Notes under the pieces: generated by a model
The model's database searches: none
The model's input: the letters and a program-made list of their open reading frames with translations, nothing else
What the model was told of the DNA's origin: nothing
From: an uncultured Nitrososphaerota archaeon
GTDB taxonomy: Archaea; Thermoproteota; Nitrososphaeria; Conexivisphaerales; DTJL01
DNA length: 64,000 nt
Assembly (NCBI GenBank): GCA_963842885.1
Contig: CAWJIE010000003.1
Span: forward strand, 1 to 64,000
Reading direction: 5' to 3'
Part shown: in pieces, positions 1-49,630 of the stretch
Layout of the letters: the number at the start of each line of letters is the position of its first letter
Numbering within the stretch: the stretch's first letter is position 1
Position numbers and translations under genes: made by a program

Positions 1-126
1 AAGATGAACTAAACTCGGGCCCTTTCGCAGGTCCAAGACTAGGCAGCCTATGCCACTGCTCTTGGAGGCACATCAGTCGCGACCATAACGATAATAGGCC
101 GAGTCAGGTGGCTTTAAGAGTCAGAC

Positions 127-548
127 ATGAAGCAAAAGAGGATAGTCCTTGTCAGCCATGAGCCAAGAAGGGAAGCATGGTCGAATGGGTGGCCTACAAC
201 AGGGAAACTTTGAAGGAGGCCGAAATATGGGCCACGGAAAGCACAGGCAAGATGGTCATGAAAGAATGTGGCTTGCCAGTGAACCTCCTCCTTTCTGGGC
301 CTCTAGGTGGCGACGCCCAGATAGGCACGATGACCGCCGAAGGAAAGGTCGACGTAATCATATTCTTCTGGGATCCACTGACCCCTCAACCTCACGACGT
401 GGATGTGAAGACCCTCTTGCGTCTCGCAGTGCTGTATGACGTTCCTATTGCCTGCAATCGGAGCACTGCCGATTTCCTCATTTCTTCTCCGATGTTCAAG
501 GATTGGAAGCGTCATGCAGATGAGCGCAAGGCACTGAAGACTCCATAG
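127..548 (+). CDS. mgsA: Methylglyoxal synthase (frameshift near 160)
   Basis: MKQKRIVLVSH(D)..K N-terminus in one frame; ATESTG, SGPLGGDAQIG and FFWDPLTPQPHDVDVKTLLR motifs in ORF 177..548. Confidence 0.92.
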
Positions 549-687
549 TCGACATACGACGAGAAGCTGTCAGCAGGCTGGTTGCAACCCCACCATCGAC
601 GTCAACAGGCCTTCTCCCAGGATACGCTAGGCGTCCATGTGGCAGTGATTTAAGCGGCTGACGGTTGGTCTTTGGCTGGTGAACTTG

Positions 688-882
688 ATGGGCAAAGGAG
701 GCCGTGGTCACGGAAGTCATCACCTGAGTCCGAACGACCAGCGTTCGAGTGCGAAGAACCCGACGAGCCATGAATACACAGCTGCCGTCGACAACAGAAG
801 CGCCCAGCTCAATCCGACCAGTCCAGAGTACAAGGGGCCCGCTCCCAAGAAGGGCGACGACCAAGGTAGCAGCGACGACTGA
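688..882 (+). CDS. Small hydrophilic protein with duplicated (N/D)xRSxxxNP motif
   Basis: GGTGA SD at 678; NDQRSSAKNPTSHEY / DNRSAQLNPTSPEY internal repeat. Confidence 0.6.
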   Translation: MGKGGRGHGSHHLSPNDQRSSAKNPTSHEYTAAVDNRSAQLNPTSPEYKGPAPKKGDDQGSSDD

Positions 883-946
883 CCTCGTGATTTTCTTCTC
901 CCTCCCTTACGCATGGTCTTTTTTTGATTGTCTTTCCCCAGCTTAG

Positions 947-1267
947 GGCTTAGTCCCATAATTGGGACTTTAGTCCGATTTAGTCTTGCTCATCTCCAGG
1001 AGCTTTGGTGAGGGCTTGTAGAGGACCTTGGGCCTGCCCACCCTCCCCTGGACCAGCTCCTCCTTCTCCACAAGGCCGTCTCCCTCCATATGTTTGAGGT
1101 GGGCCATCACCGTCGACCTTGCCAGGCCTGATTTCTCCACCACCTTGGTGAGGGTACGCGGCGTTGACATGCCTCCTTGACAGAGCAGGCCTGCCAGCCT
1201 CTTGCAGCACGAATCCAAGGACATGATGGACTAATTCGGACTTAATTAAGAGTTATGGGACTACGCC
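947..1267. mobile_element. Non-autonomous mini-element with 15-bp TIRs and 9-bp TSD carrying an HTH gene
   Basis: GGCTTAGTCCCATAA (947-961) vs TTATGGGACTACGCC (1253-1267), 14/15 inverted match; CCAGCTTAG flanks both sides (938-946, 1268-1276). Confidence 0.8.
970..1224 (-). CDS. Winged helix-turn-helix (ArsR-like) DNA-binding protein
   Basis: TLTKVVEKSGLARSTVMAHLKHMEGDGLVEK...GRVGRPKVLY; TTAATTAA TATA-like box at 1242-1249. Confidence 0.85.
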   Translation of the reverse strand: MSLDSCCKRLAGLLCQGGMSTPRTLTKVVEKSGLARSTVMAHLKHMEGDGLVEKEELVQGRVGRPKVLYKPSPKLLEMSKTKSD

Positions 1268-1294
1268 CCAGCTTAGCCAAGCTTTTAGGACATC

Positions 1295-1367
1295 GTGATT
1301 TCTTTTCCAGTAGCAAAAAGGCATCCGAATCGTCTCCCGTTGGCGGCCCATTCGCAGCTCCAAGCCC
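1295..1367 (+). repeat. Dispersed repeat copy (core plus CCCATTCGCAG motif)
   Basis: GATTTCTTTTCCAGTAGCAA...GGCCCATTCGCAGCTCCAAGCCC. Confidence 0.75.
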
Positions 1368-1476
1368 ACGTAGGGAATTAGCGGTTGAAATGGATATTGA
1401 TTTCCTTCTCCAGCACTCATGAAAGACGCCCTATGGGCGGGCTTCCTAAAGCCTGCCTTCCGCCAGCGACGCTGTG

Positions 1477-2524
1477 TCAGGCGTCCATGGATTTGAGCTT
1501 TGTCTTGTACCTCTCCCTGTTCGTGGACTCGTACTCCTCCCTTCTCGTGAGCATGAACCAGACGATCTTCAGCATCTTGTTGGCCACGGCTACTACGGCC
1601 TTCTGGTCGCCTCTCCTCTCCTTCACCCGCTCGTAGAAGGACCTCAGCCTCGGGTCGTGCATCGATGCAGACCTCGCCGCCTCCACCATGATCCATCGGA
1701 GCATCTTGGAGCCCTGCTTCGTTATGGCTCCGTGATACTCCACGGAGCCCGATTGGTGGAGAGAGGGCGCCAGCCCAGCCCAGGAAACGAGCTTCCTGTA
1801 GTTGGGGAACCTCTTGATGTCCCCTATCTCGGACCTTATGAGGAGGGCCGAGAAGACGTCCACCCCCGTCAGGCTCAGGAGCAGCCTCACGTCCTCGTCC
1901 TGTGACGCCCTCTCCGTGATCCTGTCGTCCACCCTGGAGATCTGTTCATTGAGGCTCTCCAGGTGGGCCAGGTGGTTGTCCAGAATGAGCCGTTCCATGG
2001 AGGGGAGCTCCAGCGACCTCAGCCACTCCACTCCTCCCTTCCCGAAGAGGTCGGAGAAGTCATGCTTCAGGCCGTTCCTGTCGACCATCGCGTGCACCCT
2101 GTTCTTCACCATGGTGCGCACCCTCACGATCGACGCCCTGTGCCTGATGAGCTCCCTCATCTCCCTGACATCCTTGGGAGGGACGTAGCTCTCGGGTATG
2201 AGATCGGCCCTCAGCAGATGCGCCAGTATCCTGGCGTCCACCCTGTCGCTCTTTCTTTATCCTCGCCCACGCTATGGCCTTGGTCTTCGAAGGGGAGGCC
2301 AACACGGTCGCGACGTGCATGGAATCGAGCCTCTCGTATATGCTTAGCCAGTATGCCCCCGTCGACTCCATCACCACCCTGTCGTCCATGGTGAGCGTCG
2401 CCGCTAGGGAGGATATCCCGTCGCCGTCGTTGTCGAAGCCGAACTCGTCCACTACGGCCCCACGCTCGTCCATCATGGAGACCCTGCACTTGGTCTTGCC
2501 CACGTCGATTCCCACGTATCTCAT
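1477..2524 (-). CDS. IS110 transposase/recombinase (frameshift near 2255)
   Basis: VGIDVGK, VMEST and KSDRVDA (DEDD) motifs; C-terminal WAGLAPSLHQSGS and AVVAVANKM; extra base(s) in ATAAAGAAAGAGC. Confidence 0.93.
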
Positions 2525-2554
2525 TCCACTATTCACTCTCCTTTTTGCAGCTGG

Positions 2555-2680
2555 CATCGGGCTGCATTCACTCATGCGGGCGCCAGGCCCACTTCCTTAG
2601 CAGCTCAGGATTCGCCCAGTCAGCAACACGGTCGCTAGGACCATGCTGGAAATCGGGCTTGCCAGCCCATACGGTATCAG
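2555..2680 (-). ncRNA. Putative bridge/seek RNA of the IS110 element
   Basis: Two stem-internal loop-stem modules; loop strands match target (2644-2652, 2621-2628) and donor junction (2569-2576, 2595-2599). Confidence 0.8.
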
Positions 2681-2861
2681 GGGGCGTCTTTCATAAGGTC
2701 AGCAATAGACAGCAGTGCCCATTTTCGCAGGTCCAAGCCTACGTCGAAGATTAGCGCTGAGTGAAACCCTTGTCATCTCGCGCAGCAAAACACAATCGCA
2801 AGTACCTAGGACTGAACAGCTTTGGGTCTGAGTTAGGCCTCTTCGGCGAATTTGAAAAAGG

Positions 2862-3436
2862 TCAATGCCACTTGCCCATCGTCCTTGACTGCTGCGCCGG
2901 TACGATGCGCGCTACGCTATTGGAAAGTCGACCCGCGACGATACAGGTCTGGACACCGGCTCCGCCCATCCACCAGTTGCCGGTGAAAGTGTGCCTTCCT
3001 GTCATCCCGGCTCCGAAGTTGGTTAGGCAAGTGCATGTACATAGCGCTCCAGACATGGTCGTACGTGGTGAACCCAAGCAGATTCTCATGGGCACGCCAT
3101 CGACGGACAAGACGAAGTAGTTGCTCGGGCTCTCTGCCGTCTTTCTTTGACTGGGCGACATGTCATGCGACATGGCACCCACCAATACCCGTGCATCACA
3201 TAGAAGGCGGAATTTGCCTGCCATGTGGTACTCCCTGTCCAGGCCGTGTTACCGTTACTCCCTGTGGAACCCTGATCGCAGAAGTCCGTGAACCACATAC
3301 GATCTCCGGTCATAGGTGGGGAAGCAGGGCCGTATTGACCCCCGAGCGCCGAGAACAGAATCACAAGCGAGGCGAAGACCATGAGCGCTTTACACTTCAA
3401 TTTTCTACCCTCCTGGGATGAGGAGTGACGTCCCAT
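2862..3436 (-). pseudogene. Frameshifted secreted hypothetical protein
   Basis: Signal peptide-like KCKALMVFASLVILFSALG in 3086..3436, continuing into overlapping ORF 2862..3224. Confidence 0.45.
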
Positions 3437-3729
3437 TAGAGAGAAAGTCGCCTCAACCCAATAAATTATTTCTAAGCATGAGAAATACTGCCCATAATAT
3501 ACATATTATACGTGCAATATTGAACGCCGTCCACAAATATCGGCGTTATATATGGATAACTTCATGCGCGCGTCATCCATATATAGAAAGAGGGATGAGA
3601 TGCTCTACAGATGAGATTGAACATGACATGTTACGCCCCCTCCGATGAAGGAACGGATGGGCGTTCGCTGCATTAGAACGGATGTTCGACTCATTGAGCT
3701 TTAATCCCCACACACCCGCACTTTAGCTC

Positions 3730-5651
3730 ATGCAGAAGTCTTCGAGGAACGACGCCTGGCGCAGGAATGCTGGATTCTCGTCATCGGGATAGTATGCACT
3801 GCGGGTCTGCTGGGGATGCTCTCCGTGCTGTCCCTGAACTATAACGTTCGCGCACCCTCCCGCAAGTGCGCTCGCGGAGGTGATCGGCTCGTTCCAGGAC
3901 TACTCTCGGCTTCGCGACTTCATCGCCGCGAACGCCAAGAGCGTGCAGAGGTACGGAATGGGCGGATTCGGTAGGATCTTCGTGGTCTGCCGGTACTTGG
4001 CAACCGCCGCCTTGGGACCTGCCGCTGAGTCACTTCGGCATCGACCCCCTCCTTCACGGGCACCAACGTCCAGGTCCAGGGCGTCGACGAGATAGACAGG
4101 GTGAAGACGGACGGAACGCACCTCTTCGTTTCGACGAACGACGCCGTGACGATAATGAACGCTTATCCGCCGAACTCGACGGCCGTTCTCTCGACGATCT
4201 CCTTCAAGGGCGCCAACGTGCTGGGGATAGAGGTCTATCAGGACCGCCTCTTCGTCATCAGCCAGCGGTACTCGGGCAACACGTACATCGACCTCCTCCT
4301 CTACAACGTCTCCAACCTCGCGTCGCCCAGGCTGATGGAGAACTCCAGCATCCGGGAGCTACGTGGCGGCGCGCATGGCCCAGGGCTACGCCTACGCCGT
4401 CGTCCAGCAGCCCTCCTACCAGTGGACGACGGCAACGCGACGGCCCTGATGCCAGAAGTGTACGAGAACGGCAAATGGTGGCCCTCCCGCCGTCCTCCGT
4501 AAACTACGCGCAGAACGTGACGCTCATCAGCTACTACACGATGATCGTAAGCATGAGCATGTCCACGGGGACGAACAACGTCACCACGGTCCTCACCGGA
4601 CCGTCCTCGACCGTCTACGTATCCACGGCGAACATCTACGTCGTTTACGCCAACTACCCGGTGTTCTACGCCGACGGCATCCCCGGGGACGTCTTCAACG
4701 GGGGCATCGCGACGCCGACCAGACGGTACAATCGCAGAACAGCACCATATTCCGCGCTTCGTATTCGAACGGCGCCGTCAGCGTGGCGGCGGTGGGCTCG
4801 GTGCCGGGGGCGGTCCTGAACCAGTTCTCGATGGACGAATACAACGGATACTTCAGGGTGGCCACGAGCGGCACGGCCGTCATCAACGGGGTAGGGACGA
4901 CGAGCGACGACGTCTACGTGCTCGACCAGAACATGAGCCAGGTCGCGGCCCTCAAGAACATCGCGCCGGGGAGAACATCTACGCCGTCCGCTTCGTGGGC
5001 GACATGGGGTACGTGGTGACATTCGAGCAGATCGACCCGCTGTTCGCCATCTCCTTCAAGGACGTGGCCAACCCGGTGATCCTCAGCGCCCTCAAGGTCA
5101 CCGGGTATTCGGACTACCTCCACCCGCTGCCGGGCGGCTACCTGATCGGCGTCGGGAAGGACGCGGTCCCGGCTTCGAACGGCGACTTCGCCTGGTACCT
5201 CGGGCTGAAGCTCTCCCTCTTCCAGGTCTTCGACAACGGGACGTCGAGCCAGGTCTCGAAGTACCTGATAGGGGACCGCGGGACAGACTCCCCCGTGCTC
5301 AGCGACCACCTGGCGTTCACCTTCGATTCGACCCGGAACATAACGGTGATCCCGGTCATGCTCGCGCAGGTGAGCGGAAGCCAGACCTACAACCCGAACA
5401 GCCCGCCGCCCTACGGCGACTACGTCTGGCAGGGGGTCTACGTCTTCAACGTGACGGAATCAGGCTTCACCCTCCTCGGAAAGGTGTCCCAGTACCCGCC
5501 GGGCCAGAACTTCGGCGACTCGCCAAACAGCAGCCTGCAGATAGACAGGAGCGTCATAATAGGGAACTACCTCTACACCATATCACAGAGCGAGGTCATG
5601 GTGAGCGACCTCTCCTCGTTCTCCACGCTCGCGACAGCTCCGCTGGCCTGA
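3730..5651 (+). pseudogene. Secreted beta-propeller domain protein (COG4880/Beta_propel type), multiply frameshifted
   Basis: TNVQVQGVDEIDRVKTDG, GAVLNQFSMDEYNGYFRVAT, YVVTFEQIDPLF and LKVTGYSDYLHP spread over several frames. Confidence 0.85.
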
Positions 5652-5659
5652 AGGAGTCA

Positions 5660-5772
5660 GCCAATTCGCAGACCCAAGCCCTCGCCCTAGCCTCTTATTT
5701 GATTAACCAATTGTTTTCAATATGATAAAGATGATTAAGCGATTGAGAAAGTCGTCGTCGGTCAGGCCTTGA
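5660..5772 (+). repeat. Dispersed repeat: 3' motif followed by 5' half of another copy
   Basis: GCCAATTCGCAGACCCAAGCCC then TTAACCAATTGTTTTCAATA...GATGATTAAGCGA...GTCGTCGGTCAGG. Confidence 0.7.
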
Positions 5773-5808
5773 AGTCACGTCGCTAATCCCAACCCGCTGA
5801 CGGGTTCG

Positions 5809-6240
5809 CTACGTCGATGCCTCTTCCGTATCCCGCAGCCGCCTGGCCAGCTCCCTGTCGATCACCATGGGCACGTCGGGGAAGAGGCGGACGAGGGCCT
5901 CGAAGGACCATCGGGAGAGTGCAAAACAACGGGTGGGCTCAATGGCGGTGACGTCGGTCGGTCGTGGCTGGCCTTCGAGCATGGCCATTTCGCCGAAGAG
6001 GTCTCCCCTGCCAAGCTCCGAGAGCAGCCTTCCCTCCCTCCTCATCTGGACCTTCCCCTCCAGTATCAGGTAGAGGGCGATGCCACTTTCGCCCGCCTCG
6101 CCGATCTTCTCGCCCGGCTGGAAGGACAACTCCTGGCCCAGCTTGACGACCGTCAGCAGGTCCTTCCGCCCCAAACCAGCGAACAACGCCGCCGAGCCCA
6201 GAGCATCTACCAGATCGCCTGGCGGGTCTACTTCCATCAT
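5809..6240 (-). CDS. Cyclic nucleotide-binding domain protein
   Basis: LYLILEGKV and GDLFGEMAMLEGQPRPTDV cNMP-binding signature. Confidence 0.9.
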   Translation of the reverse strand: MMEVDPPGDLVDALGSAALFAGLGRKDLLTVVKLGQELSFQPGEKIGEAGESGIALYLILEGKVQMRREGRLLSELGRGDLFGEMAMLEGQPRPTDVTAIEPTRCFALSRWSFEALVRLFPDVPMVIDRELARRLRDTEEAST

Positions 6241-6336
6241 TCTATATCACTTCGTGCGGAGACTTAAGTCTGCCGTAAATTGGTATGGGGAAACAAGGTC
6301 CGTGTCTTTGCGGGCGAGCGCTGGCACAGCTTCGAG

Positions 6337-6365
6337 GGTTTCTTTTCCAGCAGCAACAGATATTC
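6337..6365 (+). repeat. Dispersed repeat core (perfect match to IS guides)
   Basis: TTTCTTTTCCAGCAGCAACAGATAT. Confidence 0.75.
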
Positions 6366-6687
6366 GAGAATGCCGAGAGAGGCGGACTTGGACGGCTTGA
6401 AGTTCGCGGTGGAGGCGTCGGTAGGCATCGAACATCCGGGATTGATCCCCTTGCTCTTGTTCCGTCTGGACCCCACCCTTCTGAGCTTTTGCGGTGGCAT
6501 TGAATATGGAGAGGAGGAGCGTGTGCCTCCTCCCCCGGAAGAAGACGACGATTTGACTCCGGGGTAATTATGGCTTAAGGGGCCCCCCGAAGGCCTTGGT
6601 TAGGGTATAGTGTTTGCACTTCATATACTTTGTTAAGCTATAGTGTTTACCCATTGTGAACGATGTCGTGGATGAGGGCCACCTTCG

Positions 6688-6728
6688 GATATCGCAGAAC
6701 AGCGGCTCCCATTCGCAGGTCCAGGCCT
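6688..6728 (+). repeat. Dispersed repeat 3' motif
   Basis: GAACAGCGGCTCCCATTCGCAGGTCCAGGCC; same motif at 17-37, 2718-2740, 8690-8712, 25782-25802. Confidence 0.75.
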
Positions 6729-6766
6729 GCGTCTGAGATGGGCGCGGTGGGCTTGCCACGCCGAAC

Positions 6767-8110: not shown

Positions 8111-8325
8111 GATTCGATCGGCAAATAGCGGATCGGCAGAAGAGCGCTAATAACTCTATGGGCGAGTCTGCTCCTCTATTTCGTGCGAAGGCATGTTGAC
8201 GATGGAGCTCCAGGAGGGTTAGCCCAGACCACCCTATCATCCCGTTCCAACCTTGATATGTCTGAACGATCCTGTGACTCGTATCAGAAAGACATAACTA
8301 TTGCGCTGCGAATTCATTACCGAAG

Positions 8326-8487
8326 TTGACCGATTACGCGCTGGAAGAGGAGAAACTGAAGAAGCTCTACGACCAAGCGCGCACACAGGGAAACAAGAAG
8401 AAGAAGAAGGAATACAAGGAGAAGATAGCCGAACTGAACCGACTCCGCAAGTCCGAGAAGCGAGAAAGCGTCAGATCGAAGAGCTAG
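8326..8487 (+). CDS. Small basic coiled-coil protein (53 aa)
   Basis: TTG start; TDYALEEEKLKKLYDQARTQGNKKKKKEYKEKIAELNRLRK. Confidence 0.5.
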   Translation: MTDYALEEEKLKKLYDQARTQGNKKKKKEYKEKIAELNRLRKSEKRESVRSKS

Positions 8488-9036
8488 GGTTTCCTAGTGC
8501 CTTTCTCCCTTGAGAAACAAGGTGCCGCAAAGTATGCGGCTGATGCAGGCATGAAGGAGGCGCTCGACCAACCGAAGGGGTTGAGTTTCGTTATTCCTTC
8601 CAACGGTAATTCTGAACGACCTTTTGACCCATGGAAGCGCAATTCCTGTTTGTCTTAGCCTAGAGGTTGGGCAAACTTGAACTAGACAAGGCCCATTCGC
8701 AGGTCCAAGCCCATGTCTAGGATTGGCGGTTGGCGACATCGCTGCTCTTTCCAACGGCAATAGATGTCCAGTTAGGCCGATGAAGAGGCCGGCTCTAAGC
8801 GACTTTGTGGTCAATGGTGGTCTTTGGCCTTATTCTGAAAGCCGTCATGCTCGCCGCCAGCAGGACAACAATTGGCCCCGCGGCCAACATGAATCTTCGC
8901 TGCTTGTTTCCCTTGGCACTTTAGGACATGTGCTTCCCAGTATCTGGACGCTCTGGAATCGTGGGCTCAAATGGGACTGGGCCGTTGGTTCCTGTCCCGG
9001 CCGGAGCATCATAATAAATGATGGCTAACGCAACCT

Positions 9037-9696: not shown

Positions 9697-9985
9697 CTAA
9701 AAGGATTTGAGGGTAGATAGAACTCAAGCTTTCGTGTTGACCTTTTTGGCGAGTTTCATCTGCGCTGGCTTCTAGTCTCCAGGACTACCTTGCAGAAACC
9801 CTCGATGGCGTTAGGCGACTCTTTGATAGGATCATACTTCCCGTTTACGGGAGCTTTCGTGCCTCCTTGACTGTCTCCCATCATCTGGTCATTGTTCTTC
9901 TGAACACGGGCACGGCGATCATGAGGTGGAAGAGGGCCGCGCAGAGGGCTCCATGGTGCCGTTGGCCGAGGGCATTGCTCTCACT

Positions 9986-10130
9986 CAATTAACCTATTGT
10001 TTTCAATAACATGAGGATGAATAAGTGAAAGTGTGGTCGGTCAGGTCGATGGCATTGATTTCTTTTCTAGCAGCAACGGATATCCAAGACTGTGACGAGA
10101 ACAGCGGCCACCTTCCCTTCAAGCCTTAGA
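9986..10130 (+). repeat. Near full-length copy of dispersed repeat
   Basis: CAATTAACCTATTGTTTTCAATAACATG...GTCGGTCAGGTCGATGGCATTGATTTCTTTTCTAGCAGCAACGGATATCCAAG. Confidence 0.85.
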
Positions 10131-10207
10131 GCCCTATAGGACTGGAGGGCCGTGGATGCCTACAAGGGATGAATGGAAGGAAGCGCTAGTTCAGACGTAG
10201 GCGTGGG

Positions 10208-11560
10208 TTGAACAGATCAAGGAGAATCCTCGTCGCTGGGATAACCGTAGCCGTGGCGGTGTTGGTGGTAGCGATGTTCGTCCCTGTCGTCCGCCTACTT
10301 GCGCGTATATACAGATTTAAGTATGTGAATACCATTAACGGTCCCGTGCGGTCCTCCCGTGCAACGATGGCAGGGGCGGTCACTCTGGCGCTCTGCCTTT
10401 GCGTTGTCCCCGTTCTGGTGACGGTGAGCCTACCATCTCCTGGGTTCAAGAACACTAGGCCGTTGAACTACGGGGTCCTTACGTCCGGCTCATGGAACGA
10501 CACGTCCCCCGCCTGGAGCCCGGACGGGACGCGGATAGCGTTCTCCTCTGACCGCAACGGAGGATGGGGGATTTACGTCATCACCCCCCAGGGCACGGGG
10601 GAGAAGCAGCTCACCCCGTCGGGCATGGTGGCGATGAATCCCTCTTGGAGCCCCGACTCGTCGCGCATCGCCTACTGGAGCCTGGAGGGCGACGTCTCCT
10701 CGATCAAGGTAGTGACAGTTTCCACTGACTCCGTAGTCACCGTGAGCGGCGTCGATAGCGCCGTCAACATGACCCCCGTGTGGAGCCCGGACGGTTCGCA
10801 CCTCCTCTTCTACGTGGAGGCGCCGACGTTGCAGCTAACGTGCGTGGACATGGGCACACACTCGGAGCGGGTCGTGGCGGCGGTGAACAGCCCCGACTTC
10901 AATCCCATCTGGGCCGGGAACGACCGGGTGATATACTCTGATACAGAGAGCGGGCTCTACATGATCAAGTGGACGAACCTGACTTCGGGCGAGACAGGGA
11001 TCCTGAGCGAAGGCGGAGCCAACTACTGGGCGGGGGCGATAAGCCCAGACGGCACCATGATATCCTACTATTCAAACGGGACTGGGTTGGCGCTGCAGCA
11101 AACGGCTGTTGGAGGCATTGGCCAGTGGGGGGGGACTGGGTCGCTGCTGCAACCGCCTCCCGAAGGCGTTAACGTCTGGGTCAACCTGCTGAACATAAGC
11201 GAGCTTGACGTCTGGACCGAAGGCCTGAGTGCCTACCATGCGTCGTACCTTTACCTTTTCACCACTCATGTTGATATGGTGCGTCCGGGGGAAGTCATCT
11301 CCGCGGATCCGCTACGTTGGAGCCCCGTTGGCGGCCTCGTGGCGTGCGTGCTCAACAGCTCGTCTTCCGGTCTGGGGGTCTACGTCTGGAACGTGAGCAA
11401 CAACGCCATAATGCAGATGGGTCCGCCGGAGGCACAATCGACGCAGCCCAGTTGGGACCCCGAAGGGACGGTCCTAGCCTTTAGCTCTAACTCCTCCGGC
11501 TTTTGGCATATCTGGATCGCGGAGTACATCGCACCTTACAATCCCGCGGCACCACCCTAA
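10208..11560 (+). CDS. TolB-like PD40 beta-propeller secreted protein (start may be 10346 or 10367)
   Basis: Repeated PAWSPDG / PSWSPDS / PVWSPDG / PSWDPEG motifs. Confidence 0.88.
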   Translation: MNRSRRILVAGITVAVAVLVVAMFVPVVRLLARIYRFKYVNTINGPVRSSRATMAGAVTLALCLCVVPVLVTVSLPSPGFKNTRPLNYGVLTSGSWNDTSPAWSPDGTRIAFSSDRNGGWGIYVITPQGTGEKQLTPSGMVAMNPSWSPDSSRIAYWSLEGDVSSIKVVTVSTDSVVTVSGVDSAVNMTPVWSPDGSHLLFYVEAPTLQLTCVDMGTHSERVVAAVNSPDFNPIWAGNDRVIYSDTESGLYMIKWTNLTSGETGILSEGGANYWAGAISPDGTMISYYSNGTGLALQQTAVGGIGQWGGTGSLLQPPPEGVNVWVNLLNISELDVWTEGLSAYHASYLYLFTTHVDMVRPGEVISADPLRWSPVGGLVACVLNSSSSGLGVYVWNVSNNAIMQMGPPEAQSTQPSWDPEGTVLAFSSNSSGFWHIWIAEYIAPYNPAAPP

Positions 11561-12013
11561 CTGGGTCAGCAGGATCGTTGACCGCGGCGCAATCCCATAA
11601 GTCGCAATTGAAGAGCATTTTTCTGTCACAATACTATTCATCTCGGCTCGGGCGCGGTGATCCCTGGTGGTCCGTCAGGCAACCTTCCTTTCACTGCGAC
11701 ACCGCCGACCCGCCAGTCAAAGTAGGTTCGCTCATGGGTGACCGACCCAGCATCCGCGGCGCCGGTCCCTTGTGGGGCGTTCCATATTCGATTGGTACGC
11801 CTTCCCCGCACCTCAGGCCGCACGTTCTCTGACCCTTCATTCAGGCCCAGCGTCTACGCGGACCGAACGGCCCTCAGGGCGTTTCAAATGCATATGTGAT
11901 TCGAAGGACAGTCGCCGTCACCGCGCCTAATGGGGCCAACTGGAGAAAAGGTGGACCTTCCAGGTAGTGAACACACATGCGTATTAGTCGCCGCCGACGA
12001 TAGAGTATTGTCG

Positions 12014-12418
12014 ATGAATTCTAGAACGACGGCGGCGATCTTGGCGGTAGTCATTATCGTGGTTACTGCAGCAGCCTTGCTGTACTTCGGCGCAGGCGTC
12101 GGTCAGAAATTTCAGGTAAGTGATTTGCAGATGAGAAGTACGGACCTCAACCTCCTCGGGTCGGTGTCATTCACGTTATCAAACCAGAATGACGTGCCCA
12201 TTTCCTCAGTCTATGTAATGGTGAATAGGACAAATCCTGCTTATTCCCCAAGTGATCTGAAGGTATCAAGTAGCGACCCGATTTCCCCAGGACAGTCGAG
12301 AGTACTTCAGTTCTTGTACCCGGATGTGACCCGAGGTCAGAGTTATTACATTACCATAACGGTTGACTTTGGAGACGGGAGTAGTGGCTCTTACAGCGCT
12401 ACCGTTCCAGGCGAGTAG
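12014..12418 (+). CDS. Membrane-anchored Ig-like hypothetical protein
   Basis: N-terminal TM segment, beta-rich body, ISPGQS motif. Confidence 0.65.
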   Translation: MNSRTTAAILAVVIIVVTAAALLYFGAGVGQKFQVSDLQMRSTDLNLLGSVSFTLSNQNDVPISSVYVMVNRTNPAYSPSDLKVSSSDPISPGQSRVLQFLYPDVTRGQSYYITITVDFGDGSSGSYSATVPGE

Positions 12419-12570
12419 AGTCACCTTTCCTTTAACGGTCCACCGCAAGGTTCCTCCGGGCTAGGGCCCGATTAGGTACGCTGGTGCCAACCCCCGAAGG
12501 ACGGAACTGGCACATCGGGCGGATTCTAGGAGAAAAGGGCGTGGAAGTTGACGCCGTGGTCCATCACAAC

Positions 12571-12650
12571 GGATATTGATTTCTTTTCCAGCGGCAGCAG
12601 ATATCCAAAAGATACAGAGGGACAAGCGGCCCCCTCGCCTCCAAACCTTA
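12571..12650 (+). repeat. Dispersed repeat copy
   Basis: GGATATTGATTTCTTTTCCAGCGGCAGCAGATATCCAA...AAGCGGCCC. Confidence 0.8.
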
Positions 12651-12819
12651 GCCGTGCAAGGAGTTCAGGCACAACCAGAAAGGCAGAAGCTCAATTACCT
12701 ATCGAGTCAAGTCTAAGATCGATGACCAGAGGGTTACCCGTACGTCTGGATAGCGGCCTTCCTTTCTGCTAGTCACTTGAGGAAGCTTCACTTCATCCTC
12801 CAACGAGAGCCTGGTCGAT

Positions 12820-12839
12820 CGCCGCCGCAGTCAGATTGT
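12820..12839 (+). repeat. 20-bp direct repeat (second copy 20922-20941)
   Basis: CGCCGCCGCAGTCAGATTGT identical at both sites. Confidence 0.8.
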
Positions 12840-16382: not shown

Positions 16383-17342
16383 ATGAAAGTCATCAACCAC
16401 TATGACGCGACATCGGTCTCTGACGCCGTTGCTATGCTGGACAAGTACGGAAGCGCAGCCAAGGTCATGGCCGGAGGTACGGAACTCCTCCACTCGATGA
16501 AGGGATTCATCAGGACGGATCTCCCCGACTACATCATCAACCTCAAGACCATTCCTGGTCTCGATGCGATAGCCGCGGGCTCGTCTGGGCTGACGGTGGG
16601 GCCGCTCGCAACGTTGAACAGCGTCGCTACGGACAGTAACGTCATCAGCACCTATCCCATGTTGGCGCAGGCCGCCAAGGCGGTCGCGACGAGCCAGACT
16701 AGGAACCTCGGGACCATAGGTGGAAACATCAGCCAGGAGGTGTGGTGTTGGTACTACCGCTGGGAGCACAACCAATTCAACTGCCTGCGGAAGGGAGGAA
16801 GCACCTGCTACGCGACGAGCGGCGACAACAGATACCACAGCATTTTCGGCGGCCCTGCAGGCTGCTATTCTGTGGCTCCGTCGGACACTGCCATCGCGCT
16901 GCTCGCCCTCGGGGCATCGGTCAAGACGAGCAAGCAGACCATACCGATCAGCCAGTTCTTCAAGGACCTCTCTCCGGGTCACGTCCTCGCCGCCGACGAA
17001 ATAATCACAGAGATCGACGTGCCGACTCCTCCGACGGGCAACAAGCAGGTCTTCAGCAAGTTCAGCCTCAGGCAAAGCTTCGACTTCGCCGTCGCAAGCG
17101 TGGGCCTGATGTGTGCGCCGGCGACATCGACCATCACCACGGCCAACATCTGGCTGGGTGGAGTCGCTCCGACTCCGATCGAGGCGACTGGAGCAGAGAC
17201 CGCCCTGAAAGGCAACGCCATCAGTTCCACAGTAGCAGCGGCCGCTGGAGCAGCCGCAGTAGCTAACGCCATTCCGATGAGCGGCAACGCATACAAGGTT
17301 AATATCGTCCAGACTCTAGTAAGCAGAGCGATACTGACGTAG
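16383..17342 (+). CDS. Mo-hydroxylase FAD subunit with [4Fe-4S] insert (PaoB/YagS-like)
   Basis: AGGTEL, RNLGTIGGNI, CWYYR..C..KGGSTC..C, PSD, LGGVAPTP. Confidence 0.95.
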   Translation: MKVINHYDATSVSDAVAMLDKYGSAAKVMAGGTELLHSMKGFIRTDLPDYIINLKTIPGLDAIAAGSSGLTVGPLATLNSVATDSNVISTYPMLAQAAKAVATSQTRNLGTIGGNISQEVWCWYYRWEHNQFNCLRKGGSTCYATSGDNRYHSIFGGPAGCYSVAPSDTAIALLALGASVKTSKQTIPISQFFKDLSPGHVLAADEIITEIDVPTPPTGNKQVFSKFSLRQSFDFAVASVGLMCAPATSTITTANIWLGGVAPTPIEATGAETALKGNAISSTVAAAAGAAAVANAIPMSGNAYKVNIVQTLVSRAILT

Positions 17343-17443
17343 GAAGTTGAGGATGGAGTTTGTCGCTTCATCCCCAACACCCCTTTTTCTTTGGCATGTA
17401 ACGCTTATGGTGAAATGGTTATGAAGACGAGTCGAATATCAGG

Positions 17444-18102: not shown

Positions 18103-18251
18103 GCCTCAAGCTTTCCTCCGTCCTCGCGGATGGCTGCTCAACGAAGCAGCGCATGGTGGATGTCTGGCGGCTCGAAAATCCATATGCTCTACCTTCGTGG
18201 CTTCTACGCCGGCCTCATCCTGCTTCCGGGTGGTGAACATCGAGTACCTTC

Positions 18252-20910: not shown

Positions 20911-21255
20911 GTGACCGATGACGCCGCCGCAGTCAGATTGTTCGGACCCTGGTTAACAGAGCGATAATGACGTAAGAAGTTGAGGAAGAGGATTGTCACT
21001 GCACCCCCCCCCCCAAGCAGCCCTCTTTGTATATTTTTGTCAGGCAGGTCTTATTCTGCTTATGGTAAGTTATCTATTAAGATAAGTCAAATATCATGGT
21101 GAGTATCACATGACATAAGACAATCGTGTGGAAATCGACTTGACCAACATAGAAGTCAAGTACGCACTTTTCGTAATCGGCCAAAGCCTCCTTGGCAGTT
21201 ACAAGCCCGTCTACGGTTTTCCACGGAGAATCATGGAGCAGGCGGAGGGATCAGC

Positions 21256-22282: not shown

Positions 22283-22713
22283 AGATCAACGTCGCGACGC
22301 TGATCGCCGGCGGGATCATAGGCTACTTGTGGCAGCGCTCGAAGGCTTGCTCAATCTCCGGCTACAGGGACTTCTACCTCTTCAAGGACACCTACCTGCT
22401 GAAGACGGTCCTGGGGATGTTCGTGGGTGCCCTTATTGGGTTCGTCGTCCTGAAGTCCTTCAGCCCTAACGAAGGCAACTTCCTCTCACTGCTCAATACC
22501 CCGGGCCTCACGCTTGATACGATGTTACTGATCTTCATAGGCGGAATAGGCTTCGGGCTCTTCTCCGTCCTCGCCGGAGGGTGCCCGACCAAACAGCACG
22601 TGGCAGCTGCCAGCGGCTCCAAGACCTCCATGCTCTACCTTCTGGGTTTTTATGCCGGCCTGATCTACTTCCAAGTGGCAATCCTTGCATACCTTCTGTC
22701 GGTACTTAGCTAG
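22258..22713 (+). CDS. YeeE/YedE sulfur-compound transporter half
   Basis: QRSKACSISGYRD and SVLAGGCP motifs. Confidence 0.9.
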   Translation: MEGESTGLEINVATLIAGGIIGYLWQRSKACSISGYRDFYLFKDTYLLKTVLGMFVGALIGFVVLKSFSPNEGNFLSLLNTPGLTLDTMLLIFIGGIGFGLFSVLAGGCPTKQHVAAASGSKTSMLYLLGFYAGLIYFQVAILAYLLSVLS

Positions 22714-23711: not shown

Positions 23712-23864
23712 CGCATTGAGAGAATCGTTGGTGAACTAAATAGTCCTTTCCTCTACAGGAGCCACGAGATTCCATCGCCACCGGCTGACAAAGGATATCA
23801 TAACTCTTACCAGCAGTAACAGATGTCGATTGCTATCGTGAGCGCGTGCCAACTTTCATTCTCG

Positions 23865-23972
23865 TTGAACTGAGAGATTGCCTTCAATAACATAGAGATG
23901 ATTAAGCGAGAGTCGTCATTGTCGGTCAGCTCGATGATATTGATTTCTTCTCCACCAGCAACAGGCATCCAG
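23865..23972 (+). repeat. Near full-length copy of dispersed repeat
   Basis: TTGCCTTCAATAACATAGAGATGATTAAGCGAGAGTCGTCATTGTCGGTCAGCTCGATGATATTGATTTCTTCTCCACCAGCAACAGGCATCC. Confidence 0.85.
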
Positions 23973-24143
23973 AAGTACCCATGAAAGCGCAATTCGTGTT
24001 TGTCTAAGCTACAGGTTGGGCAGAATTAAGACCGTCCCATCGAAGAAGGGGTACTCTCCTGAGAGCTTGTATCCTTTTCCGGGCTACCACTACTTTGGTT
24101 AGGTGGCACTTGGCATCTCTCATCCGCCAATACAGGTCTTTCT

Positions 24144-25596: not shown

Positions 25597-25737
25597 ACAT
25601 CTGTGATCTCAGACATTGCGGGCTTGCCGAGTACACGAACACAGACTCGAGAGTTCATCTTCATCTCACGCATTTGTGAGGTCCGCACCTATTCGGGCAC
25701 TAATCCCACCGGGCCCGCTGCTCGGCCTGGCACTCCT

Positions 25738-25802
25738 TCAGTTAACCTATTGCCTTCAATAACTCAAAGAAAAATGAAGTCAGCCCATTCGCAGGTCCAA
25801 GC
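25738..25802 (+). repeat. Internally deleted dispersed repeat (5' end joined to 3' motif)
   Basis: TCAGTTAACCTATTGCCTTCAATAAC...GCCCATTCGCAGGTCCAAGC. Confidence 0.8.
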
Positions 25803-25864
25803 TCTTCGACTGTCCGCGATAATGGAGTGAAATCTCCGCTAACTCTACAAGAGGCCTCGAATCA

Positions 25865-30971: not shown

Positions 30972-31050
30972 CATGTATCAATGACGATGGAGTCGTCATC
31001 GTCGGTCAGGTTGATGATGTTGGTTTCTTCTCCAGCAGCAGGTATCCAAG
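30972..31050 (+). repeat. Dispersed repeat copy
   Basis: GAGTCGTCATCGTCGGTCAGGTTGATGATGTTGGTTTCTTCTCCAGCAGCAGGTATCCAAG. Confidence 0.8.
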
Positions 31051-31069
31051 AAGGCACCTTACGCTTGGG

Positions 31070-39048: not shown

Positions 39049-39073
39049 CTGATTGGGTCAAGCCATTCATTTC

Positions 39074-41454: not shown

Positions 41455-41655
41455 CCGGTCTGCTCCGTCAACCAAATGGCAGCCGAGAGACCGTCGAGTG
41501 GTGGCATACCATAGAGGCCAGTGATGCGTAAGATGCCAGAAGAGTCGCCCTGCGCTCACGGTAGTTTTGGATATCTGTTTCCTTTGGAAAGGATTGCGCT
41601 ATCCGGGAACACTTCTATCTTCACGACCGTCAGTTGGTCCTAGATTACTTTGAGG

Positions 41656-47417: not shown

Positions 47418-47579
47418 ACAAGATGGTCTTGCCCGCGTGATTTCTCAGCGCGTTGTGAAATCTGCAGGTGGCCGAGCATGAGGTTCCATCGCCGTCAGCC
47501 GCCAACTTCACGGTTCCGTCTGGGAATCTGAAGCCCGCGACACTGAGTGACACATTGCTGAAGTCCAGTGAATCAAGGC

Positions 47580-47622
47580 TTTGGATATCTATTGCTGCTG
47601 GAAAAGAAATTAATATCATCGG
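47580..47622 (-). repeat. Dispersed repeat copy (inverted orientation)
   Basis: TTGGATATCTATTGCTGCTGGAAAAGAAATTAATATCATC. Confidence 0.85.
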
Positions 47623-47897
47623 GGCGATGACCTACGGCCAAGTCACGTCGGCGTAGTAGCTGTTGCCGGCGACTGTCACGACATCGGCCCGCCAGATTGC
47701 CAAGATGATTCACTATGTGCTGTGCCTATTCCTCCGCGAGTTCAGGATTCGCCTCGTCGGGTTCTCCAATAGAACGGTTGACCAGGGGCCCGAAGAGACT
47801 CCACCCTTCACTTGCCTGCGGCGGAATCTTAGGTCTGCGAAGCTCAATTGCGGCGGCTGGAGAGCTGATATACGGGGAGGTCCGAAGCGAGTGACGC

Positions 47898-48560
47898 TTG
47901 AGCCCCACGGCCAAGGCGATCGCCTCCACACTACTTGTGCTGCTGGCGATCGCAGTCACAGCCGCCATCATCGAATCAGGATCTCAGTTGCAGACAGATA
48001 CGACCGCAAGGTCAGACGAACTCGTGCAAGCGTTGTTCATCGTCGCACTCGTTGTCGCGCTCTCGATCTTCCTTCCCGGTGCAATCGGGGCTCCCTGGGT
48101 CCCGACTTCGAGGGGCGTGGTAAGGCGCATGCTCGTCATGGCCGACGTCAGGCCTGAGGAAGTCCTCTATGACCTAGGCTCCGGTGACGGTAGGATCGTC
48201 ATAGCGGCGGCCAAGGAGTTCGGCGCGACCTCCATAGGAGTCGAAATAGACCCCTTCCGCTACCTCTTCTCTAGCATCAGGATACGCATCCTTGGACTTG
48301 GAGGCCGAGCCAGGATAGAGTGGAAGAGCTTCTACAATGTGGACCTTGGCAAAGCCGACGTTATAACACTTTACTTGGTGCAGGGGACGAATGACAAGCT
48401 GAAGCCCAAGCTCGAGAGGGAGCTGAAACCAACGTGCAGGGTGGTCTCCCATGTGTTCAAATTCAGCGGCTGGAAGCTGCTGAAGGCCGACGAGAAGGCA
48501 GCCATCTACGTGTACTCTCCTCTACCACCTGGTTCCGACAAGCAAAGACAGGGAAAATAG
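47898..48560 (+). CDS. Membrane-anchored class I SAM-dependent methyltransferase
   Basis: GAPWVPT, YDLGSGDGRIV, VVSHVF. Confidence 0.9.
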   Translation: MSPTAKAIASTLLVLLAIAVTAAIIESGSQLQTDTTARSDELVQALFIVALVVALSIFLPGAIGAPWVPTSRGVVRRMLVMADVRPEEVLYDLGSGDGRIVIAAAKEFGATSIGVEIDPFRYLFSSIRIRILGLGGRARIEWKSFYNVDLGKADVITLYLVQGTNDKLKPKLERELKPTCRVVSHVFKFSGWKLLKADEKAAIYVYSPLPPGSDKQRQGK

Positions 48561-48660
48561 GGGAAAGGATTACGATATCCTCAAGACCGCCAACTTAGCA
48601 GAACCCCGCCCCTGAATCATTAAATACCGGGCCGCTGGGAAATCGAACCGATTTGTATTG

Positions 48661-48819
48661 ATGAGAGACCCGGTATGCGGAATGATGGTTGACGAGAAGA
48701 AGACCAGACTAAAGTCTGAATACAGCGACCAGACCTTCTACTTCTGCAACGCCATCTGCAAGAATGCATTTGACAAAGACCCAGGCAAATACGCCCATAT
48801 GAAGCAAAGGTCGGGCTAG
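48661..48819 (+). CDS. YHS/TRASH domain metal-binding protein
   Basis: DPVCGMMVD..FYFCNAICKNAFDKDPGKY (below ORF-track cutoff). Confidence 0.92.
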   Translation: MRDPVCGMMVDEKKTRLKSEYSDQTFYFCNAICKNAFDKDPGKYAHMKQRSG

Positions 48820-48986
48820 CAATAGCCATTCCAATCGTCTTCTGAGGGCCGCCACCGCCTGATCCGTAACATATGTTGCGGTAAGCGTCGAAGACCCCAA
48901 AGTCCTGCGCACCGCCCAGGACTCTGGTTTGGTGAGAGCTATAATTCGATTCGGAGCACCCATGGAAGACTTGCAATGGGTGAATC

Positions 48987-49032
48987 TGGATGTCTGTTGC
49001 TGCTACAAAGGTTTGCGATATCCTCAAGGCCC
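48987..49032 (-). repeat. Dispersed repeat variant (inverted); related pieces at 48562-48586 and 41566-41605
   Basis: TGGATGTCTGTTGCTGCTACAAAGGTTTGCGATATCCTCAAGGCC. Confidence 0.65.
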
Positions 49033-49127
49033 GCTGGCGTGCGCGGGTCAGTCGAAGTCTTCGGACCGTCATTCCGAATGCAAAAGGAGATAAGGGGAGC
49101 GACGCCGGACCGAAGTGCTAGCACAAC

Positions 49128-49511
49128 ATGAGTCTACAGGCTCTGGAAGGCAAGAAATACATCAGCCTTGAGACCTATCGTCGCAACGGGGCAGGGGTTC
49201 CCACACCCGTCTGGTTCATTCTGCAGGAGAATCACGTCTTCGTCTGGACCATCTCCACCTCAGGAAAGGTGAAACGCATGCGAAACAACCCACACGTAGC
49301 AGTCGCCCCCTGTACCATGCGCGGGGAGCCCCAAGGGCCATACGTCGAGGGAGTTGCGACCATGTTTGACGATGACTCCTCTCAGGAGTTGCGCAAGGCG
49401 TTCAAATCGAAATACGGCCTGATGCTGCTCTTGGACAGGGCGGTGCCGCGGCTGGGGAAGAAGGAGAAGCGAGTCTTCGTCTCCATCACTCTGTCCGGCT
49501 CCCATGCATGA
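49128..49511 (+). CDS. PPOX-class F420-dependent oxidoreductase
   Basis: YISLETYRRNG..TPVWF..SGKVKRMRNNP.V.VAPC..RG. Confidence 0.92.
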   Translation: MSLQALEGKKYISLETYRRNGAGVPTPVWFILQENHVFVWTISTSGKVKRMRNNPHVAVAPCTMRGEPQGPYVEGVATMFDDDSSQELRKAFKSKYGLMLLLDRAVPRLGKKEKRVFVSITLSGSHA

Positions 49512-49523
49512 TCCTACGGCGAC

Positions 49524-49630
49524 GATATCAGTTGCTACTGGGAAGAAATCAATATCATTGACCTGATCGGTGATGACGCCTCTGTCGATTAGTCATCTTC
49601 ATGTTATTGAGAACAAATAGGCCAATTGAA
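49524..49630 (-). repeat. Near full-length dispersed repeat (inverted)
   Basis: GATATCAGTTGCTACTGGGAAGAAATCAATATCATTGACCTGATCGG..TCATCTTCATGTTATTGAGAAC. Confidence 0.85.

Follow-up and report, generated by a model that had tools for sequence, protein, structure and literature searches.

Introduction

Arrays of mosaic intergenic repeats that organise gene exchange are a textbook feature of a few bacteria, with the bacterial interspersed mosaic elements (BIMEs) of Escherichia coli and the Neisseria intergenic mosaic elements (NIMEs) as the standard examples. The phage enzyme that targets dRS3, one of the NIME repeats, belongs to the IS110/Piv family, and the pdif modules of Acinetobacter plasmids are delimited by 28-bp XerC/D sites that alternate in orientation. 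The subject of this work is a family of short intergenic repeats dispersed over a 64,000-nucleotide (nt) stretch of DNA, referred to below as the window, from the draft genome of a soil/peat archaeon. Full-text literature searches returned no earlier description of mosaic intergenic repeats in Nitrososphaeria/Thaumarchaeota or Conexivisphaerales.

NIME arrays were proposed in 2007 to be recombination substrates that promote the exchange of flanking genes; in the same source, their dRS3 repeats are presented as targets of a phage transposase, and a recombinase recognising a short conserved unit is considered possible (PMC1797815). Insertion sequences (ISs) of the IS110 family have been described as inserting specifically into repetitive extragenic palindromic (REP) elements (PMC11208160). 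Integrase-less arrays of gene cassettes are reported to be common in metagenome-assembled genomes (10.1101/2022.02.06.479319). The original prediction for the window postulated a dispersed repeat of ~190 bp that partitions genes into modules and represents recombination sites or scars of an undescribed gene-capture system, rather than an ordinary miniature inverted-repeat transposable element (MITE). The results given below confirm a part of this view and change another part.

Modular Composition of the Repeats

The source genome (G000) is a metagenome-assembled draft of 2.03 Mb in 11 contigs, with a completeness of 87%. Pfam matches to TBP, a thermosome subunit and archaeal helix-turn-helix families within the repeat arrays are signs of an archaeal host, and G000 is a Nitrososphaeria-type archaeon. 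A single repeat copy (window positions 9965-10125), used as an nhmmer seed against the whole of G000, gave dozens of matches, from which an iterated profile of 119 nt was obtained (the AmB model; genome-wide threshold E<1e-3).

Results of our analysis show that the copies belong to a genus-specific family of mosaic repeats, intergenic and non-coding, that are made of four short modules: E, A, C and B. Module E (~50 nt) shares ~10 nt at its start with an IS110 end; module A (~50 nt) is AT-rich and contains a promoter motif similar to the transcription factor B recognition element and TATA box (BRE/TATA-like); module C (~30-55 nt) contains an invariant 16-mer, with the core TTCGCAGGTCCAAGCC; and module B (~40 nt) includes a T-rich tract. 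When 17 full copies of two genomes are aligned, the segment named mid, which separates A from B in the A-mid-B element, corresponds to C minus ~25-30 nt, and B continues into E. Since mid is thus a deletion form of C and B runs into E, the usual order of modules is [E]-[A]-C-B. Each of the modules is found also alone, and their combinations vary between copies. The contiguous unit is either A-mid-B of 113-119 nt or A-C-B of 125-153 nt, which is shorter than the ~190 bp assumed initially; only units that also contain E have a length of ~190-230 nt.

The A-mid-B profile has 70 matches in G000 (12 full, 25 5'-only and 33 3'-only copies), while separate profiles found 53 matches of module C and 22 of module E. 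Together they form 130 blocks, which merge into 107 elements. The existence of a dispersed family is supported also by exact-seed repeat finding, which grouped the copies listed in the original prediction into families D1, D2, D4-D6 and D12, and by the recovery of 16 of its 19 positions with the AmB, C or E model (E<=0.01, genome-wide or in a search of the window only); two of the remaining positions, 5660 and 12936, are degenerate C modules recognised by eye only, and the copy at 48562 was not detected. What had been listed as copies at 1392 and 2700 is repeat sequence at both places, but it represents a single B module split by an IS110-family element.

Spacing between the modules in G000 ranges from 5 nt to tens of kb, so irregularly that the predicted lack of CRISPR periodicity is confirmed. 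The sites are distributed over at least 15 clusters and occupy 34 of 108 bins of 20 kb, the densest being the start of the window and contig C2. Among 38 C-only blocks, 23 are solitary and sharp-edged. Partial copies of A-mid-B mostly break in the same part of the model: 23 of the 25 5'-only matches end at AmB positions 59-83, and 27 of the 33 3'-only matches begin at positions 51-80. These model-based break positions are soft, as conservation in the AmB model is lowest in the mid/C segment.

Location, Orientation and Lack of Structure

The intergenic location of the repeats, noted already in the original prediction, is evident genome-wide. The arrays are found in hypervariable regions, with copies between accessory genes. 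Greedy open reading frames (ORFs) of at least 150 amino acids (aa) cover 74.8% of the genome and only 6.7% of element bases, and 9 of the 107 elements lie by more than half inside such an ORF. Neighbouring elements are strongly co-oriented: this concerns 71 of the 77 pairs located within 10 kb of each other (binomial p=3e-15). Arrays of co-oriented copies spaced by 0.4-4 kb occur in four genomes, with, for instance, all copies on the minus strand in G002 contig C58 and all on the plus strand in G003 contig C59. The orientation is unrelated to that of flanking genes, as 6 of 11 copies in the window lie downstream of a co-oriented gene. An explanation of co-orientation by coupling to replication was rejected, as orientation does not follow the weak GC skew: on contig C4, copies of both orientations are found where the skew has the same sign.

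The repeats are non-coding and unstructured. Their reverse strand can be read as a peptide ending in a stop codon, but the frames change between copies, no long ORF terminating in this peptide-like reading was found, and column entropy lacks a 3-nt periodicity; thus, a coding remnant was rejected. RNAalifold found no consensus structure on either strand of the 17 full copies, and the z-scores of 14 single-strand DNA folds (7 copies, both strands) ranged from -0.93 to +1.42, giving no hairpin. The window has no Rfam match at the gathering score, and the sole weak match obtained at E<=1 in two repeat-bearing stretches (0.58) lies outside the repeats. A relation to C/D-box small RNAs (sRNAs) was considered in view of a box C/C'-like GATGA seen by eye, but there are no D/D' CUGA boxes. 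The repeat alignments contain no terminal inverted repeats (TIRs) and no conserved flanking target-site duplication is visible in them, with the reservation that element ends are ill-defined. As there is no R''/R' inverted pair either, the earlier statements that the repeats lack TIRs and attC pairing hold, and so does the view that they are not an ordinary MITE, considering that fixed length and hairpins are missing too.

Distribution in Archaea

The genomic comparison included 30 relatives of G000: four congeners (G001-G004, of which G002 is the closest sister) and 26 other genomes. G001 is 59% complete, while G002 (~140 contigs) and G003 (~90 contigs) are fragmented drafts. The A-mid-B element is present in two of the four congeners and in none of the 26 other relatives. 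The C-core 16-mer, with at most one mismatch allowed, occurs 58 times in G000, 60 in G002, 44 in G003, 24 in G001 and once in G004; a single match in the 26 other genomes is ascribed to chance, and a control with the reversed pattern gave none. The 16-mer is identical in most copies, while orthologous segments of these species are only ~75-92% identical. In a scan of GTDB (one genome per species), the multi-copy records among the matches listed were titled only Conexivisphaerales or Nitrososphaerota archaeon, and the matches listed included single chance matches in many bacteria. Hence, a profile scan extended to the whole genome and its relatives, as proposed with the original prediction, indicates a family whose range is a single genus of Nitrososphaeria-type archaea. 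Repeat modules and arrays are present in four independently assembled congeners, and both were found also in contigs of four public sequencing runs of two studies, X1 and X2 among them.

A viral origin of the repeats was considered and rejected. The 16-mer has matches in 21 IMG/VR loci, one in each, which by a rough estimate is about the number expected by chance; the similarity is limited to the 16-mer, and modules A, B and E were not found in these 21 loci.

Gene Order at the Repeats

The repeats lie at the borders of shuffled DNA. Repeat-rich contigs of G002 consist of consecutive 0.3-3.5 kb segments that map to seven contigs of G000 (C2, C3, C4, C5, C7, C8, and C10), with an identity of 64-94% (mostly 77-94%) and with modules at the seams. 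The comparison to G002 resolves the window into a patchwork of over 30 segments, and the window is mosaic also with respect to G003. The association was quantified in window positions 1-50 kb, with gaps defined as intervals between ORFs of at least 100 aa. None of the 12 module-bearing gaps is crossed by a collinear G002 match, as compared to 16 of the 43 module-free gaps (Fisher p=0.012), which supports the supposition that the copies mark synteny breakpoints. The partition of genes into modules by the repeats, as originally envisaged, is likewise largely seen, with repeat modules at the seams of shuffled segments, but the junctions do not fall at one nucleotide position.

The segment with a gene of a cyclic nucleotide monophosphate (cNMP)-binding protein may serve as an example. 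G000 has two copies of it and G002 three, and their contexts are unrelated; both its junctions and its orientation with respect to the modules change from one context to another. In a contig of X1, from a ~92%-identical relative, the Beta-propeller gene is followed by an uninterrupted A-mid-B; at that place in G000, mid and B are separated by the cNMP gene. A second interrupted element, of the order A, gene, mid-B, is located on G002 contig C62. Despite these two clear cases, a general model of split elements (5' half, cargo, 3' half) was rejected, and the proposed complementarity of 5' and 3' halves was not sustained: a 5' half is followed by a 3' half in four pairs genome-wide, which is no enrichment (permutation p=0.93). 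Runs of the same type are commoner among neighbouring partial copies, with 3'-only followed by 3'-only ten times and 5'-only by 5'-only six times. Most of the apparent contig joints in the four public runs arise by cross-mapping from one repeat copy to another and have short sides, and they were not usable as evidence of junctions.

In this uncultured and little-studied genus of archaea, the repeats delineate the flexible genome, and they are the reason why its assemblies fragment.

Some other observations concern DNA close to the repeats. The 3' end of an ABC-2 permease gene (27401-27440; gene at 27401-28624, minus strand) is duplicated exactly over 40 nt at 9881-9920, ~50 nt before a full A-mid-B; position 27401 is also a synteny boundary in the comparison with G002. 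This duplicate may be a footprint of a past rearrangement. The segment 8227-8577, which includes a lysine/glutamate-rich ORF of 70 aa (8301-8513), is a second segment that is both conserved and multi-copy; it has matches in each of the four congeners, sits at several contig ends of G002, and the contigs with it have a raised depth in X1 and X2. The inverted repeats at 946-985 and 1229-1268 (40 nt, 80% complementary) surround an ORF of 84 aa (970-1224, minus strand) without a Pfam match, and the whole of 946-1268, which adjoins the repeat/IS cluster, looks like a tiny TIR-bounded element with one small gene. In the shuffled, module-free part of the window, a 110-nt direct repeat (52501-52610 and 60280-60389, 81% identical) is unrelated to A, B, C and E; other repeat families may play the same role at 50-60 kb.

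IS110-Family Insertions in Modules B and A

IS110-family elements, which are of the bridge-RNA type, use the conserved cores of B in G000 and of A in G002 as specific insertion sites. The IS of the window (1286 bp, 1416-2701) has 13-bp subterminal inverted repeats and encodes an IS110/IS1111-type transposase (ORF 1477-2241; Pfam PF02371 and PF01548), whose gene is frameshifted and lies in two frames. G000 contains three copies of this IS, 93-94% identical to the intact copy on contig C7 over ~1.3 kb (94% in the case of the window copy). All three split B at one position and in one orientation, between ...TTCCAGCA and GCAAYAGAT.... Within the 126-nt left end of the IS, 8 nt (TGTTGCTG) match the target in the same sense, which would be compatible with a guide of a bridge RNA. 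Among 10 genomes examined, this IS lineage is present in G000 only.

The IS110 lineage of G002 is different, with a protein 31-48% identical to that of the G000 lineage. Its left junction is on contig C52 and its right junction on contig C88, both at one position of the A core, between ...CAATAACATA and AAAGATGATTAA..., the right one directly in front of tRNA-Ser. Thus, the genus offers two natural archaeal examples of IS110-family elements with defined multi-copy targets, which can be useful for studies of bridge-RNA targeting.

The G002 sequences in question (C52, locus L073, 1427-1560; C88, locus L070, 1780-2060) are IS110/IS1111-like and have the subterminal inverted repeats ATGTGGGC and GCCCACAT. 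One of the copies is a remnant directly upstream of tRNA-Ser(GCT) that leaves only the TATA part of the promoter.

Module A and the tRNA-Ser(GCT) Locus

In the upstream regions of the 31 tRNA genes predicted by aragorn in G000 (for three of which no amino acid was assigned), a BRE/TATA-like motif of the AAAG-CTTTAAT type recurs at a distance of ~25-45 nt from the mature 5' end. In the case of tRNA-Ser(GCT), the only such motif is the conserved core of an A module, which lies ~30-45 nt upstream of the mature tRNA, resembles the other tRNA promoters and is conserved in four congeners. G000, G003 and G004 share this A copy at the same place before tRNA-Ser, and the part of it with the promoter is found also in G002 and, as AAAGGTAATTAAT, in another genus. 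In the repeats, A points towards C-B. As judged from these sequence similarities, A probably either originated from the region of the tRNA-Ser(GCT) promoter or was recruited to serve as such a region. An origin of the modules from tRNA- or tmRNA-derived att repeats was rejected, as the window has no tRNA gene and no module is similar to a tRNA body; the sole match is that of A to the upstream flank of tRNA-Ser.

The tRNA-Ser(GCT) locus is a rearrangement hot spot in the genus. In G003, it has the order C-A, two genes, C-A-tRNA-Ser, as compared to a 540 nt spacer in G000; one of the two genes is the Beta-propeller gene that in G000 is located at window positions 3635-5651. In G004, an inversion ends at this locus.

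Search for a Recombinase

A search for a full-length master copy of the repeat next to a recombinase or reverse transcriptase gene had been proposed with the original prediction, but no dedicated enzyme was found. The integron integrase model TIGR02249 has no match in G000, the genome being 87% complete, which leaves its absence unproven. Pfam matches of the ORFs of the arrays (83 of G000 and 96 of G002 and G003) were to transporters, methyltransferases, acetyltransferases, regulators, surface-type proteins and parts of toxin-antitoxin systems. The sole Phage_integrase among these 179 ORFs is at the end of a G003 array. A frameshifted tyrosine recombinase gene abuts an E-A copy in G000 (C5:293.4-294.5 kb); otherwise, this recombinase family is found mostly beside tRNA genes, like ordinary integrative elements. 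G000 encodes one Y1 transposase and six TnpB-like proteins, all far from the repeats; the single Y1 gene (PF01797, IS605-type; C5:213342-213695) is beside a TnpB-like gene, with the nearest repeat ~50 kb away. Large unannotated array ORFs were considered as candidates for DNA-transfer enzymes and rejected, as they appear to encode surface or membrane proteins (PKD, NHL, zinc-ribbon).

The tyrosine recombinase family is multi-copy, with members 81-91% identical at C4:76.5-77.8 kb and C5:293.4-294.5 kb in G000 and on contigs C132, C75 and C90 in G002. Several copies are broken or located at contig ends, and the family adjoins tRNA-Arg(TCT) and another tRNA gene. These copies are probably integrative elements of the genus. 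Tyrosine recombinases encoded at C4:323.7 kb, C5:357.9 kb and C5:10-12 kb, as well as the IS110 transposase, are candidates for proteins that bind module C.

Repeat Copies and Other Features of the Window

Table 1. Repeat modules and associated insertions in the window, with the evidence for each
Feature	Positions	Strand	Evidence
Module A tail + C, truncated by window start	1..37	+	C-model match 20-37, E=6e-5
Module B	1286..1328	+	AmB positions 78-117, E=0.003 window-only
Module C	1345..1387	+	Repeat family D2; C-model match 1347-1374
5' half of IS-split B	1393..1415	+	Sequence; junction aligned with two other IS copies
IS110/IS1111-like IS, 1286 bp	1416..2701	-	PF02371 + PF01548; ends read; frameshifted transposase
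3' half of IS-split B	2702..2717	+	Sequence; aligned IS junctions
Module C	2718..2760	+	Repeat family D2; C-model match E=4e-10
Degenerate C directly after Beta-propeller gene	5657..5691	+	By eye only; core with 2 mismatches
A-mid, element interrupted after mid	5692..5774	+	AmB positions 4-81, E=2.5e-12
cNMP-binding gene segment between A-mid and B	5765..6317	-	PF00027; alignment of four contexts
Module B	6331..6370	+	Repeat family D1; AmB positions 87-118
Module C	6706..6748	+	Repeat family D2; C-model match
E-C-B	8629..8774	+	E-model 8629-8680; C 8692-8723; B from family D1
Full A-mid-B	9971..10095	+	AmB positions 3-119, E=1.6e-26
mid-B	12552..12611	+	AmB positions 59-118
Full A-mid-B, then E	23859..24029	+	AmB positions 4-116, E=1.1e-26; E-model 23979-24029
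A-C	25724..25810	+	AmB positions 3-73; C-model 25784-25802
mid-B; G002 homology begins inside B at 31012	30979..31052	+	AmB match; G002 comparison
Weak B	41566..41629	-	Repeat family D12; E=0.002 window-only
mid-B	47580..47646	-	AmB positions 55-118, E=1.6e-10
B	48985..49028	-	AmB positions 75-116
Full A-mid-B	49524..49637	-	AmB positions 3-114, E=1.1e-20

The window contains also features other than those listed in Table 1. The Beta-propeller gene (PF09826) is split into two ORFs at 4101-5651. Contigs of the four public runs have five insertions of 1-2 nt relative to the window within this gene (4353-4967); the window copy may be frameshifted, or the runs may carry a divergent allele. Two pairs of paralogous stretches, 72-78% identical (17304-17375 with 20937-21008, and 18103-18219 with 22550-22665), indicate a duplicated gene block inside the window, of which G002 lacks the copy at 17.8-21.2 kb. 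Beside repeat arrays, G000 has a four-member paralogue family of NHL/beta-propeller-like proteins of 380-600 aa (C2:101.6 kb, C2:135.4 kb, C5:99.8 kb, and C7:14.8 kb), one of them with internal tandem repeats.

Possible Mechanisms

With moderate confidence, we favour the explanation that the repeats are an archaeal counterpart of the BIME/NIME mosaic repeats of bacteria and work as portable homology for general recombination. Copies of the repeat would provide portable stretches of homology, and DNA segments bounded by them could be excised, exchanged or inserted by general recombination, either by Campbell-type insertion of circles or by replacement with incoming linear DNA. The outcome would be co-oriented copies around unrelated genes, growing into arrays, as was proposed for neisserial NIME arrays; co-oriented copies are expected here because repeated Campbell-type insertion would yield them. 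Several points weigh against this explanation. The part of the window at 50-60 kb is equally shuffled although no module was detected there, and therefore the repeats are not necessary for shuffling. Assemblies of G002 and G003 tend to break at repeats, so that the apparent loss of collinearity is inflated. Repeats of 30-150 nt with 70-90% identity are poor substrates for general recombination, a site-specific system would equally give strict local co-orientation, and the evidence includes no observed recombination intermediate. Moreover, the C-core 16-mer is near-invariant across species, whereas passive homology tracts should decay; this invariance suggests that a bound factor is selected for, that the spread was recent, or that the copies evolve in concert. 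As the invariance of the C core, the sharp edges of C blocks and the polarity of arrays are poorly explained by general recombination, a cassette system specific for the C core stays a candidate. Such a dedicated site-specific system, analogous to integrons, would use the ~30-nt C with its invariant 16-mer as the crossover site of a recombinase other than IntI, and would excise cassettes of one to three genes as circles and reinsert them at other C sites, with A, B and E as accessory arms. We consider it unlikely on balance. It would account well for a core that is invariant across four species, for the 23 of 38 C-only blocks that are solitary and sharp-edged, for co-oriented arrays of 0.4-4 kb spacing in all four genomes, for partial copies that break within C/mid (23/25 5'-only and 27/33 3'-only), for multi-copy cassettes and for the occurrence of empty and filled sites, and two tyrosine recombinase genes adjoin repeats, one where a G003 array ends and the other, which is broken, at an E-A copy in G000. 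On the other hand, no integron integrase was found in G000 (87% complete), no recombinase is consistently linked to the arrays (one Phage_integrase in 179 ORFs), and the tyrosine recombinase family mostly adjoins tRNA genes. Module C lacks the inverted-repeat core typical of tyrosine and serine recombinase sites, genes occur in both orientations, junctions of one gene segment vary by context and its orientation to the repeats flips, and the break positions are soft, with mid/C the least conserved part of the model. Equally doubtful is the broader proposal of a previously unrecognised platform of cassette exchange, with A as a portable promoter and with an enzyme that is novel, of host origin or of an IS110-type RNA-guided kind, which would move cassettes within and between related archaea; if true, it would be an independently arisen functional analogue of integrons in Nitrososphaeria. 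The invariant 16-mer, co-oriented in arrays across species, is a testable candidate for a recombination site recognised by protein or RNA.

The orientation of the BRE/TATA-like motif of A towards C-B, its match to the tRNA promoters of the genome and its service to tRNA-Ser, together with the T-rich tract in B and the strong conservation of the C core, would fit small expressed units that merely accumulate in variable regions; in each of them, transcription from A would yield a short C-B RNA, either an sRNA or a 5' leader, with its end at the B T-tract. This is improbable, as neither a conserved secondary structure nor an Rfam match was found, A is missing from 23 of the 38 C-only blocks and 33 of the 70 element matches, orientation is unrelated to flanking genes, and both co-orientation and breakpoints are left unexplained. 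Even less probable is a decayed non-autonomous transposable element, similar to MITEs or to palindrome-associated transposable elements, moved in trans by, e.g., TnpA of the IS200/IS605 type or descended from the ends of IS110. High copy number, intergenic location and restriction to the genus would agree with it, as would the presence of one Y1 transposase and six TnpB-like genes in the genome and the ~10 nt shared by the start of E and an IS110 end; but the copies have no TIRs, terminal hairpins, or fixed length or ends, they are mosaics of modules in varying combinations, their orientation is independent of GC skew (contig C4), the Y1 and TnpB genes are not near them, and the highly similar IS110 is present in G000 only, while the repeats are in four genomes. 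The probability of an assembly or binning artefact, with chimeric contigs joined at repeats, is negligible: the draft is indeed metagenome-assembled, in 11 contigs, and sister genomes break at repeats, but four congeners, each assembled independently, have the same modules and arrays, both are present also in contigs of four public runs of two studies, and contig pieces identical to the window span several module sites (X1 record 6, 11494-12835; X2 record 12, 9891-10331). Returning to the scars or sites of an undescribed gene-capture system with which the original prediction explained the repeats, the breakpoints, the co-orientation and the non-MITE character agree with it, while the lack of a dedicated recombinase and the existence of close bacterial analogues (BIME/REP and NIME) do not.

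Comparison with Known Systems

Discrete gene modules that are bounded by short recombination sites and reshuffled without a module-encoded recombinase are known from the pdif system, to which the arrangement described here is similar. However, no dif-like 11-6-11 palindrome is seen in any of the archaeal modules, and the orientation of pdif sites alternates. A comparison to integron arrays and to clusters of attC sites lacking integron integrases (CALINs), including the archaeal ones, reveals more similarities: in these, as here, co-oriented sites less than 4 kb apart lie between unrelated small genes, cassettes are shuffled, and the sites are more alike within than between lineages (10.1101/2022.02.06.479319). 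The archaeal repeats differ in having only one-mismatch look-alikes of attC motifs (AATTAAC in A and GTTGATG before B), with no R''/R' inverted pair and no imperfect hairpin, and IntI was not found in G000. Moreover, genes are present here in both orientations, junctions have no fixed nucleotide, and the sites form at least 15 clusters.

The REP/BIME elements of Enterobacteria and Pseudomonas, which are targets of IS621 and ISPpu10, among others, share with the archaeal repeats the mosaic combinations of motifs and the role of a high-copy intergenic target of bridge-RNA-guided IS110 elements (PMC11208160; 10.64898/2026.03.19.712850). In contrast to the archaeal repeats, which have no hairpin, REPs are palindromic hairpins, and they have a REP-associated tyrosine transposase (RAYT), while the sole Y1 gene here is of the IS605 type, beside tnpB and ~50 kb from the nearest repeat.

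NIMEs are similar as short non-coding modules that occur in many combinations, are intergenic beside variable genes and form arrays that differ between strains, and in having a short conserved unit that is the integration site of the transposase or recombinase of a mobile element (PMC1797815). The dRS3 is, however, a 20-bp unit with 6-bp terminal inverted repeats, which both the C core and the other modules here lack. NIME arrays are mostly stacks without genes, whereas the modules described here are single, co-oriented and dispersed between genes across tens of kb. The two kinds of repeats are not similar in sequence, and the present one is hosted by an archaeon. The repeats of the window are therefore not a strict member of the integrons, MITEs, REPs or NIMEs, because a defining feature of each of these classes is missing here. 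They are an archaeal variant of the bacterial intergenic mosaic repeats, which they resemble because they are modular, mosaic, intergenic and genus-restricted, and form dynamic arrays that lie beside variable genes and are exploited by IS110-family elements.

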